Of a stretch of 64,000 bases of DNA, positions 47,992-54,705 are shown in pieces. The stretch lies in the NCBI RefSeq assembly GCF_003334765.1, contig NZ_QOWT01000007.1, one strand, 5' to 3'. The notes beneath the pieces were generated by a model. The model searched no databases. It worked only from the letters and a program-made list of their open reading frames with translations, and was not told the DNA's origin. Numbering within the stretch: position 1 is the first letter of the stretch; every line of letters starts with the position of its first letter. The translations under genes were made by a program, and so were the position numbers. This DNA comes from Escherichia coli. GTDB taxonomy: Bacteria > Pseudomonadota > Gammaproteobacteria > Enterobacterales > Enterobacteriaceae.

Positions 47992-48805
47992 TGACCAAAT
48001 TCTCAGTGGTTGTCGCAGGCGGTGGAAGCACCTTTACGCCAGGCATCGTGTTGATGCTCCTGGCGAATCAGGACCGTTTCCCGCTTCGTGCACTGAAATT
48101 TTATGATAACGATGGTGCGCGGCAGGAAGTGATTGCCGAAGCCTGTAAAGTCATCCTTAAAGAAAAAGCGCCGGACATTGCGTTTAGTTACACCACCGAT
48201 CCTGAAGTGGCATTCAGCGACGTTGATTTTGTCATGGCGCACATCCGCGTCGGCAAATACCCGATGCGCGAACTGGATGAAAAAATCCCGCTGCGCCACG
48301 GCGTTGTTGGTCAGGAAACTTGCGGACCCGGCGGAATAGCGTACGGCATGCGTTCCATTGGCGGCGTCCTGGAACTGGTGGATTATATGGAAAAATATTC
48401 ACCAAATGCCTGGATGCTCAACTACTCCAACCCGGCAGCCATTGTCGCAGAAGCCACGCGTCGTCTGCGCCCGAATGCGAAAATCCTCAACATCTGTGAC
48501 ATGCCAATCGGTATTGAAAGCCGGATGGCGCAAATTGTTGGGCTGCAAGATCGCAAACAGATGCGCGTGCGCTACTACGGCCTGAACCACTGGTGGTCGG
48601 CGATATCCCGCAGTTTCAGAAAGGGTTAATGAGTCAGCAAGTGGCGGTGGAAAAACTGGTCGTGGACGCCTGGGAACAGCGTTCATATCAGCACCTGTGG
48701 CAGGCGATTACGTTGTCGAAAACGGTACCGAGCGCCTCGGTCGCCAAAGCTATTCTGGATGAGTTGCTGGAGGCCAACAAAGCGTACTGGCCAGAGTTAC
48801 GTTAA
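47991..48805 (+). pseudogene. glvG: 6-phospho-alpha-glucosidase GlvG (GH4), disrupted
   Basis: N-terminal 212 aa with NAD-binding motif [13 protein letters not shown] ends at 48629; a GH4 C-terminal-like segment continues in another frame (48593-48805). Confidence 0.72.
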
Positions 48806-49695
48806 TTGTGTGGACTGGCATCCGTTGGGTGCTGGTCCGTATTCTTTAGCACGGCTGACGGCGCATAACCAAATTTATGTTTAAAGGCTTTGCTGAAATG
48901 AAAGGAGTCGAAGAAGTTGAGCGTATCAGCGACTTCGCCAACCGAGTTTCCTTGTTGCTTTAATAGCGATAGCGCCAGATCCAGACGCGCATCGAGGTAA
49001 TATTCTTTCGGCGTCTTGCCGGTATAGCGTAAAAACAGACGACGCAACCAGGCTTCGCTACAGGGGATCGTGGCAGCCATATCAGCTACGCTCCAGCGTT
49101 GTTGCAGACTGGCATGTAAAGTGGCAATTAATTTTTCAATTTGCCGCCGTTGTGGATCTTTTTTACCATCTGCGTACATAAGACAAATCCACTGATAAAT
49201 AATTTTCGTCAGAAAAGCGACTGCCAGATTATTTTTTATTGCTTCTGGTGAAGTTATTAACTCAGCAACTTCGGTGAGTTCCTGATTATAAATTTCGCCA
49301 TTATAAATAACGCTTTGCTGACCAACGGGAATATCCATCATACTGGTGGGGGTAAATTCCATCCAGTACTGTTCCCAGACTAAACCTTCACAGTGATAAG
49401 AGTGAATATCCATTGGCTTTAAGAATATAATACAGTTGCCATGCAGTGTTATTTGTTCGCCATTCTTTAAAAGAATTTTCCCACATCCTTGTACGGTATA
49501 CACCGCAACCCATGAGTTGGCGATAAGCGGTTTCTTCTTGTCCCGCGGCCAGATCACCCGGTAATGCTCGTCGGCGTAGGTATGCCAGAGCGAGATCAGA
49601 GAAATTCCGCTGGAGATCACATTTTCGTTAATCAATAAGGGAATATTGTACGGAGTTTCGTTTTTTACATCTGAACTTTGCAATTTTCCATTCAT
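48802..49695 (-). CDS. yidL: AraC-family transcriptional regulator YidL
   Basis: 297-aa product [11 protein letters not shown]... with C-terminal AraC HTH. Confidence 0.8.
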
Positions 49696-49861
49696 TTTAA
49701 TATCCCTCCGGCGAATTATGCTCACAACCTGAACTTAACAGAAAACAATCCGTTCAGGGATACGACGTTTGTATTTTAAGAATCTGACTGCCTGACCCGA
49801 CGCATTTTACCTCTCCCTATATTCATGCGTCCGGGACATAAACATAAATAAGGGCTATGAG

Positions 49862-53511: not shown

Positions 53512-53859
53512 ATGAAAATTTCCCGCCTCGGAGAAGCGCCTGATTACCGCTTCTCGCTGGCTAATGAGCGTACTTTTCTGGCGTGGATCCGTACTGCACT
53601 AGGATTTCTGGCGGCGGGGGTTGGGCTTGATCAACTTGCGCCAGATTTCGCCACGCCCGTCATTCGCGAACTGCTGGCGTTGTTGTTGTGTCTGTTTTCC
53701 GGCGGGTTAGCGATGTATGGCTACTTGCGCTGGTTACGCAATGAAAAAGCGATGCGTCTGAAAGAGGACCTGCCCTACACCAACAGCTTATTAATCATTA
53801 GCTTAATATTGATGGTCGTGGCGGTGATCGTTATGGGACTGGTGTTGTATGCCGGATAG
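53512..53859 (+). CDS. yidH: inner membrane protein YidH (DUF202)
   Basis: 115-aa ORF. Confidence 0.8.
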   Translation: MKISRLGEAPDYRFSLANERTFLAWIRTALGFLAAGVGLDQLAPDFATPVIRELLALLLCLFSGGLAMYGYLRWLRNEKAMRLKEDLPYTNSLLIISLILMVVAVIVMGLVLYAG

Positions 53860-54211
53860 CCGCAAAGCCAGACGCATTGCCGACCCAGGACTGCAGCCGG
53901 AGCGCACATCACTGGCGTGGTTTCGTACCATGCTGGGCTACGGCGCGTTGATGGCGTTGGCTATCAAACACAACTGGCACCAGGCGGGCATGTTATTCTG
54001 GATTTCGATTGGCATTCTCGCCATCGTGGCGCTGATCCTCTGGCACTACACCCGTAATCGCAATTTAATGGATGTCACGAATAGCGATTTTTCCCAATTT
54101 CACGTAGTCCGTGACAAATTTTTGATCTCCCTCGCGGTGTTATCTCTCGCAATACTGTTTGCTGTAACGCATATACATCAACTTATCGTATTTATTGAGA
54201 GAGTCGCATGA
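53849..54211 (+). CDS. yidG: inner membrane protein YidG (DUF202)
   Basis: 120-aa ORF overlapping yidH 3' end by 11 nt. Confidence 0.8.
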   Translation: MPDSRKARRIADPGLQPERTSLAWFRTMLGYGALMALAIKHNWHQAGMLFWISIGILAIVALILWHYTRNRNLMDVTNSDFSQFHVVRDKFLISLAVLSLAILFAVTHIHQLIVFIERVA

Positions 54212-54705
54212 CAGGAAGTCAGGTCATTGATGCTGAAGAGGACAGGCATAAACTGGTTGTAGAGTACAAGGATGCTCTGCAACCTGCCGATTTTTATCAC
54301 AATTTCAAACAGCGGGGCATCCGCTCCGTACAGCTCATTCCCTATCTTGAATTTGATGACCGGGGCGATCTGACGGCCGCTTCGGTGACAGCAGAGCTGT
54401 GGGGGAAATTTTTAATTGCCCTGTTCGAGTGTTGGGTGCGGGCAGATATCAGTCGTATCTCGATTGAGCTTTTTGACGCCACCTTACAAAAATGGTGTGG
54501 CAGCGAAAACCCGCAACCGCGCTGTGACTGCCAGGCGTGCGACTGGCATCGCCTGTGCCCGCACGCTCGGCAGGAGACGCCAGACAGCGTGCTTTGTGCG
54601 GGCTATCAGGCGTTTTATTCTTACTCCGCACCGCATATGCGGGTGATGCGTGATCTGATAAAGCAGCATCGTTCTCCCATGGAGCTGATGACGATGCTGC
54701 GGTGA
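54208..54705 (+). CDS. yidF: truncated anaerobic sulfatase-maturase-like protein YidF (C-terminal Cys-rich domain only)
   Basis: 165-aa ORF with Cys cluster CDCQACDWHRLCP...C but no CxxxCxxC radical-SAM motif; overlaps yidG stop. Confidence 0.8.
   Translation: MTGSQVIDAEEDRHKLVVEYKDALQPADFYHNFKQRGIRSVQLIPYLEFDDRGDLTAASVTAELWGKFLIALFECWVRADISRISIELFDATLQKWCGSENPQPRCDCQACDWHRLCPHARQETPDSVLCAGYQAFYSYSAPHMRVMRDLIKQHRSPMELMTMLR

Follow-up and report, generated by a model that had tools for sequence, protein, structure and literature searches.

YidF of Escherichia coli, a derivative of a sulfatase maturase lacking the radical-SAM core, appears to be maintained beside two DUF202 genes in a locus with a recent, unrelated yidK-yidJ deletion

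The yidL-yidF locus of Escherichia coli occupies positions 48802 to 54705 of a 64,000-nucleotide stretch of contig NZ_QOWT01000007.1 (here called the window), where the list of open reading frames (ORFs) and the Prokaryotic Genome Annotation Pipeline (PGAP) annotation both place it between the glv genes and emrD. Its sulfatase gene, yidJ, lacks its 5′ end, and YidF, the product of its last gene, corresponds to only part of an anaerobic sulfatase maturase. Is the locus an unused sulfatase pathway drifting into pseudogenes, as an earlier note on this DNA proposed, or do the two lesions have separate causes and consequences? We favor the second answer, with a probability of about 0.7: a recent deletion across yidK and yidJ and an old in-frame reduction of the maturase would be two unrelated events, with YidF kept for a noncatalytic role. 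Confidence in the descriptive parts of this account is high.

YidF contains the cysteine string RCDCQACDWHRLCP...C and lacks the CxxxCxxC motif of radical S-adenosylmethionine (SAM) enzymes. Hidden Markov model searches gave no Pfam Radical_SAM or SPASM match for YidF and no meaningful Pfam match at all, and they yielded no full-length radical-SAM maturase from it. YidF did match TIGR03942, the anaerobic sulfatase maturase model (E = 5e-21), with 75.1 bits against a curated whole-protein cutoff of 349.45; the best stretch places residues 17 to 101 on profile positions 160 to 245 of 363. A YidF-family profile aligns to residues 157 to 361 of the anaerobic sulfatase-maturating enzyme (anSME) anSMEcpe (PDB 4K37; E = 4.5e-18) and skips about 50 residues that hold C255, C261, and C276. 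In anSMEcpe, auxiliary cluster I is ligated by C255, C261, C276, and C330 and auxiliary cluster II by C317, C320, C326, and C348 (PMC5715301). YidF C108, C111, C117, and C130 align with the four cluster II ligands; of the cluster I ligands, the equivalents of C255, C261, and C276 are deleted, and that of C330 is lost in E. coli YidF. Of the ancestral protein, YidF retains the start (MTGSQV), the end of the barrel, the four cluster II cysteines, and the C-terminal helices; it has lost the stretch of the barrel that binds SAM, together with about 55 residues of SPASM, which form the auxiliary cluster I part of that domain. The earlier description of YidF as the C-terminal, Cys-rich part of a maturase without CxxxCxxC is borne out by these matches, and the absence of the auxiliary cluster I part is added to it here.

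An AlphaFold2 model of YidF (predicted local distance difference test [pLDDT] score of 82.8; predicted template modeling [pTM] score of 0.81) found anSMEcpe chains (4K37) as its best Foldseek matches (E = 6e-6; template modeling score of 0.63 over the query). Homology of the retained part, taken together with the orthologous position described below, points to common descent of YidF with the anSME family. Because the radical-SAM cluster motif, the SAM-binding part of the barrel, and auxiliary cluster I are all gone, YidF, judged from its sequence, cannot be a radical-SAM maturase and is expected not to form formylglycine.

The ancestral state of the gene is seen in other Enterobacteriaceae. 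Conserved peptide patterns were used to seed a scan that covered a single genome for each bacterial species. It returned 77 loci, and in 17 of these species-representative genomes yidH and yidG accompany both the sulfatase genes and an open maturase gene of ~370 codons with CxxxCxxC. These full-length loci, which include Citrobacter werkmanii, C. braakii, C. sedlakii, Kluyvera, Trabulsiella, Atlantibacter, and Pluralibacter, lie mostly at the same chromosomal site, adjoining emrD. Full-length orthologs from Citrobacter, Kluyvera, Trabulsiella, Atlantibacter, and others are 370 amino acids long, start with MTGC, and overlap yidG by ATGA. The C. werkmanii ortholog scored 483.9 bits with TIGR03942 (cutoff, 349), has a Radical_SAM domain at residues 12 to 173 plus SPASM, and matches 4K36 with E = 9e-69; in orthologs including L029, L053, and L005 the radical-SAM motif is present as CNL[DR]CRYC. 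The comparison shows that the ancestral locus was an Enterobacteriaceae operon for a sulfated substrate, made up of yidL, yidK, yidJ (whose product has no signal peptide), yidH, yidG, and the gene for a 370-amino-acid maturase. It also disposes of the suggestion that yidH and yidG fill the space of the lost radical-SAM domain, since both sit upstream of the full-length maturase gene in relatives. We likewise considered whether yidH and yidG could be relics of the radical-SAM half, and this was ruled out: both are genuine DUF202 genes, and a search of the window at E values of up to 10, including the sequence under yidH and yidG, found no trace of maturase residues 1 to 126.

The same gene order was found in a metagenome-assembled genome (GCA_002322335.1; L005), with genes for an AraC regulator, a 544-amino-acid YidK homologue, a 497-amino-acid sulfatase, two DUF202 proteins in succession, and a maturase. 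This maturase starts MTGCHVMAKPASSRCNLRCRYC (longer form, MTGCHVMAKPASSRCNLRCRYCFY), and its start overlaps the stop of the second DUF202 gene. Its split into parts of 162 and 204 amino acids was examined as a natural two-gene form and rejected, as the break coincides with an assembly NN at positions 7955 to 7956. Here the cluster is flanked not by emrD but by an mgtA-like gene on one side and ridA-pyrI-pyrB-like genes on the other, all identified from Pfam matches; the yid cluster has therefore moved at least once. Outside the enterobacteria, the nearest maturase relatives are found in Bacteroidales (11 loci). No yidH or yidG homologue was detected in the Bacteroidales maturase loci, and among the loci recovered here the pairing of DUF202 genes with a maturase was seen only in Enterobacteriaceae.

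YidF and the full-length orthologs start alike (MTGSQV and MTGCQV, respectively; MTG[CS][QH]), have the ATGA overlap in common, and are separated by two internal gaps. Because the start and the yidG overlap are those of the full-length gene, YidF is an in-frame internal-deletion derivative of the operon's maturase. Forms of 162 to 192 amino acids are present in every Escherichia species sampled, the Citrobacter freundii complex, Salmonella arizonae and diarizonae, Klebsiella, Raoultella, Leclercia, Silvania, Superficieibacter, and Kluyvera sichuanensis. Intermediates comprise a 192-amino-acid form that keeps CxxxCxxC and has no barrel; forms of 213, 220, and 249 amino acids; forms of ~310 amino acids with mutated motifs and no auxiliary cluster I; and full-length forms with a mutated CxxxCxxC. 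In all, about ten degenerate architectures with differing breakpoints exist in Enterobacteriaceae, spanning 162 to 315 amino acids in addition to the full-length mutated-motif forms. Nearly all have open reading frames, and each deletion observed is in frame. The short forms of Leclercia and Silvania are 67 to 77% identical to the full-length Leclercia gene and at most 69% identical to the short forms of other genera, and the short form of C. amalonaticus is closest to the full-length C. amalonaticus gene. Because the breakpoints differ and short forms are nearest the full-length genes of their own lineages, the maturase has degenerated several times; a single ancestral truncation behind all short forms was rejected on the same grounds.

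What survives these reductions is specific. C108, C111, and C130 are invariant in all 38 degenerate forms, and C117 is present in 32 of the 38, the other 6 keeping a neighboring Cys; every one of the 38 has at least four of the five cysteines of CxxCx5CxxxC...C. The C-terminal HMRVMRDL..RSP.ELM helices are almost invariant. On this pattern, the site that once held auxiliary cluster II probably still binds a single [4Fe-4S] cluster in YidF.

The company that the gene keeps suggests where its role may lie. In every Enterobacteriaceae locus recovered, yidH and yidG stand directly 5′ of the maturase or its remnant, and the overlaps among yidH, yidG, and yidF are the same in the loci checked from other genera. 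A sulfatase gene accompanies full-length maturases in 17 loci and is absent from 10; for open degenerate forms the counts are 7 with and 20 without (Fisher P = 0.013, not corrected for phylogeny). Loss of the sulfatase thus goes with loss of the radical-SAM part, as expected for a dedicated maturase, and the remnant persists with yidH-yidG: the 20 open degenerate forms (of 27) that have no yidJ nearby are all located behind these two genes. We infer that YidF may serve the yidH-yidG module and not sulfatase maturation. That it is a functional, noncatalytic protein seems to us probable; that it is specifically an iron-sulfur partner of YidH and YidG is possible and is offered with considerably more reserve. 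We know of no function for DUF202 proteins in bacteria. As a tentative generalization, the maturase gene may repeatedly and independently have been turned into a small non-radical-SAM protein that is kept for a sulfatase-independent job with YidH and YidG, whose iron-sulfur or redox partner or regulator it might be. At the same site, the C. youngae strains CCUG 30791 and ATCC 29220 carry different alleles, namely, yidH-yidG with a 176-amino-acid YidF only and yidL-yidK-yidJ-yidI-yidH-yidG with a 370-amino-acid maturase, respectively, which suggests allele replacement by recombination at the yid locus.

YidF could instead still aid sulfatase maturation without radical chemistry of its own, as a chaperone for the CxPxR segment of YidJ or by passing electrons to AslB or YdeM. 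Its descent from the operon maturase, the operon that it shares with yidJ in Escherichia, S. arizonae, and Superficieibacter, and its retention of the surface-proximal auxiliary cluster II ligands would all fit such a role, but most open degenerate forms reside, as noted, in loci without yidJ. The deleted segment, moreover, takes with it the cluster I ligands C255, C261, and C276, in a region that in the 4K36-4K39 structures also contributes to peptide binding. In the window, yidF is intact beside a dead yidJ, but the yidJ deletion is too recent for this to be informative. We regard a maturation aid of this kind as unlikely.

The proposal of decay would make YidF a dead maturase relic whose reading frame is open by chance, in a locus that as a whole is an unused pathway drifting toward pseudogenes. 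Its attractions are plain: YidF has no radical-SAM catalytic element left, evolves faster than its neighbors, is frameshifted in some genomes, and belongs to a gene that degenerates more commonly where the sulfatase is gone; in addition, yidJ is lost in the present strain, and an insertion sequence interrupts yidK in another. The selection data largely refute it. By Nei-Gojobori counting, dN/dS for yidF is 0.165 (bootstrap, 0.11 to 0.23) at a dS of 0.56 across six Escherichia species representatives and 0.20 (0.12 to 0.39) across seven E. coli strains; for short forms elsewhere it is 0.15 to 0.17 in Citrobacter/Salmonella, 0.20 in Superficieibacter, 0.30 in Klebsiella/Raoultella, and 0.31 in Leclercia/Silvania. 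Full-length maturases give 0.08 to 0.11. None of the 13 Escherichia sequences (the six species representatives and seven E. coli strains) has an internal stop or frameshift in yidF, while by our estimate a neutral 495-nucleotide sequence at a dS of 0.56 should have gathered several per lineage; the 165-amino-acid form is intact in all six E. coli strains sampled. The in-frame character of several independent internal deletions and the invariance of C108, C111, and C130 also speak against a relic. So does the rest of the locus: in Escherichia, dN/dS is 0.038 for yidL, 0.026 for yidK, and 0.046 for yidJ, with 0.02 for yidH and 0.06 for yidG. The sulfatase pathway is not decaying in the genus Escherichia, and yidL, yidK, and yidJ are under strong purifying selection. 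The earlier note had set decay against the prospect that YidF-sized proteins occur in many genomes under purifying selection, and it is the latter that was found (27 open degenerate forms, 20 of them without a sulfatase; dN/dS, 0.15 to 0.31). On these comparisons YidF would be catalytically dead as a maturase and yet not a pseudogene, and we consider chance survival of its frame quite improbable.

Conservation of the frame for a reason other than the protein is less credible still. The ATGA overlap with yidG is conserved, and in E. coli 7 bp separate the end of yidF from the stop of the convergent emrD, so that a DNA or RNA constraint, or translation past the yidG stop, might be imagined. However, the dS of yidF (0.56) is above the 0.39 to 0.43 of its neighbors and does not differ between the last 48 codons and the remainder; because synonymous divergence is nowhere reduced, constraint acts on the YidF protein, and a DNA-level constraint behind the conserved tail was rejected. 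The gene 3′ of yidF also differs by genus (dsdA in Citrobacter and Leclercia, emrD in E. coli), and it is specific residues, the cysteines and the HMRVMRDL...RSP motif, that are conserved. As the last gene on its strand, yidF cannot be kept open by polarity on downstream genes. We judge a nonprotein explanation to be very unlikely.

Several points weigh against a conserved, noncatalytic YidF. YidF has evolved 3 to 8 times faster than its neighbors, and frameshifted copies of yidF are found in E. albertii NBRC 107761, Leclercia adecarboxylata NCTC13032, Kluyvera genomosp. 3, and P. gergoviae, so that some genomes tolerate its loss, and together the two observations imply that constraint is relaxed. 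The dN/dS values come from simple counting, and dS exceeds 1 (saturation) in the Citrobacter clade. The YidF model is at its least certain in the cysteine loop (pLDDT, 56 to 66), the confidence of AlphaFold2 partly reflects the full-length sequences in its alignment, and half a barrel is an odd stand-alone fold. Seeding with peptide patterns favors loci with a conserved tail, and badly decayed copies may be undersampled. A literature search on yidF or yidJ found nothing on the nature of YidF. As to the frameshifts themselves, that of E. albertii NBRC 107761 lies at positions 4259 to 4742 of the recovered locus (L023), and P0010, a further protein from E. albertii, has all 165 amino acids; the copies of this strain and of L. 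adecarboxylata NCTC13032 (L065) reflect either tolerated loss or sequencing errors. The count of disrupted copies is approximate, because the automatic "broken" class takes in loci that are probably intact (L060, L052, and L084, with a variant tail or a mispicked start).

The second event concerns yidK and yidJ. The gene list, order, and coordinates given in the earlier note for yidL to yidF agree with the ORFs, the PGAP annotation, and the family models, and the features of the locus are as follows.

48802 to 49695, minus strand: yidL, AraC-family regulator, divergent from yidK and intact; same PGAP protein accession as in K-12-like strains.
49862 to 51814, plus strand: yidK′ fusion ORF of 650 codons, of which codons 1 to 556 (to 51529) are authentic YidK, a sodium:solute symporter.
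51517 to 51524, plus strand: deletion junction, where one copy of the 8-bp repeat CTGGCGGC is left and, compared with intact genomes, 159 bp have been lost.
51514 to 52908, plus strand: yidJ remnant, Cys-type sulfatase, residues 34 to 497 in frame.
52955 to 53404, minus strand: yidI, small hydrophobic protein; lies between yidJ and yidH in opposite orientation.
53512 to 53859, plus strand: yidH, DUF202 membrane protein, very strongly conserved.
53849 to 54211, plus strand: yidG, second DUF202 membrane protein; 11-nucleotide overlap with yidH and ATGA overlap with yidF.
54208 to 54705, plus strand: yidF, 165 amino acids; derived from the operon's anaerobic sulfatase maturase by internal deletion in frame.

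The region from yidL to yidF is 100% identical to that of strain FORC 064 over 5,904 bp, and its alignment with a K-12-like locus shows one 159-bp gap and 1 nucleotide difference in 5,904. In intact genomes (for example, L002), two 8-bp direct repeats of CTGGCGGC, exactly 159 bp apart, bound the lost segment; the loss is a classic short-repeat deletion. It confirms the 5′ truncation of yidJ proposed earlier and, beyond that proposal, clips yidK as well: the last 15 yidK codons and stop, the yidJ ribosome-binding region, and the yidJ start with its first 33 codons were removed. In the yidK′ fusion, the 15 native end codons are replaced by 94 out-of-frame codons that run through the yidJ remnant. 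YidK residues 1 to 556 are retained at 100% identity, and the symporter profile NF007790 ends at residue 526, so that the conserved core is complete; PGAP labels yidK′ a pseudogene (C terminus missing), and the truncated YidK with its 94-codon tail may still work. PGAP calls the yidJ remnant "missing N-terminus." The remnant still encodes the CTPAR formylglycine motif (CxPxR) in frame, and residues 34 to 497 of YidJ match at 100% (tblastn). With no canonical start codon left, and with its N-terminal MKRPNFLFVMTDTQ segment (residues 1 to 33, including MTDTQ) deleted, yidJ is dead in the present strain.

A 46-mer spanning the junction, built such that intact genomes cannot match it, was run against 5,426 complete E. 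coli genomes and was found in 45 (0.8%). Three carriers of differing sources each differ from the window by 1 nucleotide in 6,046. The number of carriers and their near-identical haplotypes show that the deletion is genuine and recent, arose once, and is confined to a small E. coli lineage; an assembly or sequencing artefact, for which no supporting evidence was found, is scarcely credible in the face of an identical junction in 45 independently assembled complete genomes, the near identity of those three carriers to the window, and the signature of repeat-mediated loss. In six further E. coli strains spread over the identity range, yidK and yidJ were intact in five, and an IS3 element was present in yidK in one. 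This IS3-family insertion sequence, within yidK of E. coli STEC299 (positions 1228 to 4279 of locus L089), is an independent lesion of the same pathway. Locus-wide pseudogenization is thus not what the genus shows, with the deletion in 0.8% of E. coli and dN/dS values of 0.03 to 0.05 for yidL, yidK, and yidJ. The related claim that neither the sulfatase nor its maturase is functional survives in part: yidJ is dead in this strain and YidF is not a maturase, but neither the proposed origin of YidF nor decay of the locus holds up.

The remaining genes fit known families, with one exception. YidL has AraC-type NCBIfam matches over residues 61 to 288. Intact YidK scores 856.6 bits with NF007790 (cutoff, 401), TIGR00813 also being named, and intact YidJ (497 amino acids in K-12-like genomes) matches arylsulfatase and choline-sulfatase models. 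YidH (E = 6e-19) and YidG (E = 3e-11) belong to Pfam DUF202 (PF02656), and YidH is 79 to 99% identical across genera. No NCBIfam family matched YidI. The yidI gene has no counterpart in E. coli AVS0575 and STEC299 or in most other genera, which indicates a lineage-variable insertion; these two strains also lack the glv genes, such that yidE abuts yidL, and yidJ lies 60 nucleotides from yidH. The arrangement without yidI, in which yidK, yidJ, yidH, yidG, and the maturase gene form one unit, looks ancestral. A promoter and terminator scan of yidI to yidF gave nothing usable.

Three further observations concern the surroundings. The G+C content of yidL (0.41 to 0.46 at positions 48750 to 49750) is clearly below the 0.50 to 0.56 of the rest of the locus. 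On the 5′ side, a 6-phospho-alpha-glucosidase gene (glvG/glvA-like; positions 47991 to 48805) is split by a frameshift into ORFs at 47991 to 48629 and 48593 to 48805; PGAP likewise flags it as a pseudogene in relatives of the strain and in K-12-like strains, and it is intact in O157:H7 86-24 and Ec-U18. The only hit of an Rfam scan lies outside the yid locus: the small RNA istR (RF01400; 150 bits) at 56572 to 56701, past emrD and adjoining tisB, which is unrelated to the yid finding.

These observations can be assembled into a sequence of events. In the ancestral operon, YidK would import a sulfated compound and YidJ, presumably cytoplasmic because it has no signal peptide, would desulfate it after activation by the co-encoded maturase. 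Before the Escherichia species split, in-frame deletions removed the radical-SAM core (approximately residues 10 to 150) and, from the SPASM domain, the part for auxiliary cluster I, with the start kept. The resulting YidF would neither cleave SAM nor oxidize the sulfatase cysteine; it would act as a small protein, probably with one [4Fe-4S] cluster, together with YidH and YidG, and selection would be preserving this second role. An intact YidJ would then depend for its activation on a different system, be it AslB, YdeM, or the oxygen-dependent "third maturation system" by which E. coli, reportedly as found by Benjdia et al. in 2007, activates Cys-type sulfatases without AslB or YdeM; such maturation would explain an intact yidJ with no cognate maturase. 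Very recently, the deletion between the CTGGCGGC repeats killed yidJ and gave yidK a junk tail in one small E. coli lineage. In the present strain, the activation of YidJ is moot, since the 5′ end of yidJ is deleted.

If this account is right, several consequences follow. YidF is labeled "radical SAM protein" in thousands of E. coli genomes in RefSeq, and the label would describe its ancestry, not its activity. The apparent decay of the sulfatase pathway is the private lesion of a small lineage, and yidL, yidK, and yidJ are well maintained across Escherichia. A YidJ without a maturase of its own bears on the route of sulfatase maturation in E. coli outside AslB and YdeM. The repeated, selected shrinking of a maturase next to yidH-yidG would make it feasible to study how part of an enzyme is retained for a noncatalytic role and, if true, would both exemplify a radical-SAM pseudoenzyme and open a first functional approach to bacterial DUF202 proteins. 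No description of such a reduction beside two DUF202 genes was found in the searchable literature; the strain-specific yidK-yidJ deletion is ordinary.

Among the closest known systems is anSME itself (AtsB, AslB, and anSMEcpe; TIGR03942; PDB 4K36 to 4K39). YidF resembles it in the C-terminal half, the cluster II cysteines, and the C-terminal helices, and it occupies the site of the full-length maturase in sister genera; it differs in having no CxxxCxxC, no SAM-binding part of the barrel, and no cluster I ligands and in falling below the TIGR03942 cutoff. E. coli has two comparable gene pairs, aslA-aslB and ydeN-ydeM, which, like the yid locus, place a sulfatase gene near an anSME-type gene; the yid locus is set apart by two DUF202 genes between sulfatase and maturase and by a maturase cut to a stub. 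The 159-bp loss fits deletions between short direct repeats, which arise by replication slippage or illegitimate recombination, in that one copy of CTGGCGGC is retained, and nothing about it is unusual. Among SPASM/twitch radical-SAM proteins, the CxxCx5C...C retained by YidF corresponds to the second half of the SPASM domain; twitch domains have a single auxiliary cluster fused to a working radical-SAM core, whereas YidF has one putative cluster site and no core. With pseudoenzymes, YidF shares the loss of catalytic motifs, the maintained frame, a dN/dS well below 1, and the conservation of noncatalytic residues. Unlike the usual pseudoenzyme, it reached this state mostly through large in-frame deletions and not point changes, and similar losses have been repeated within one orthologous gene.

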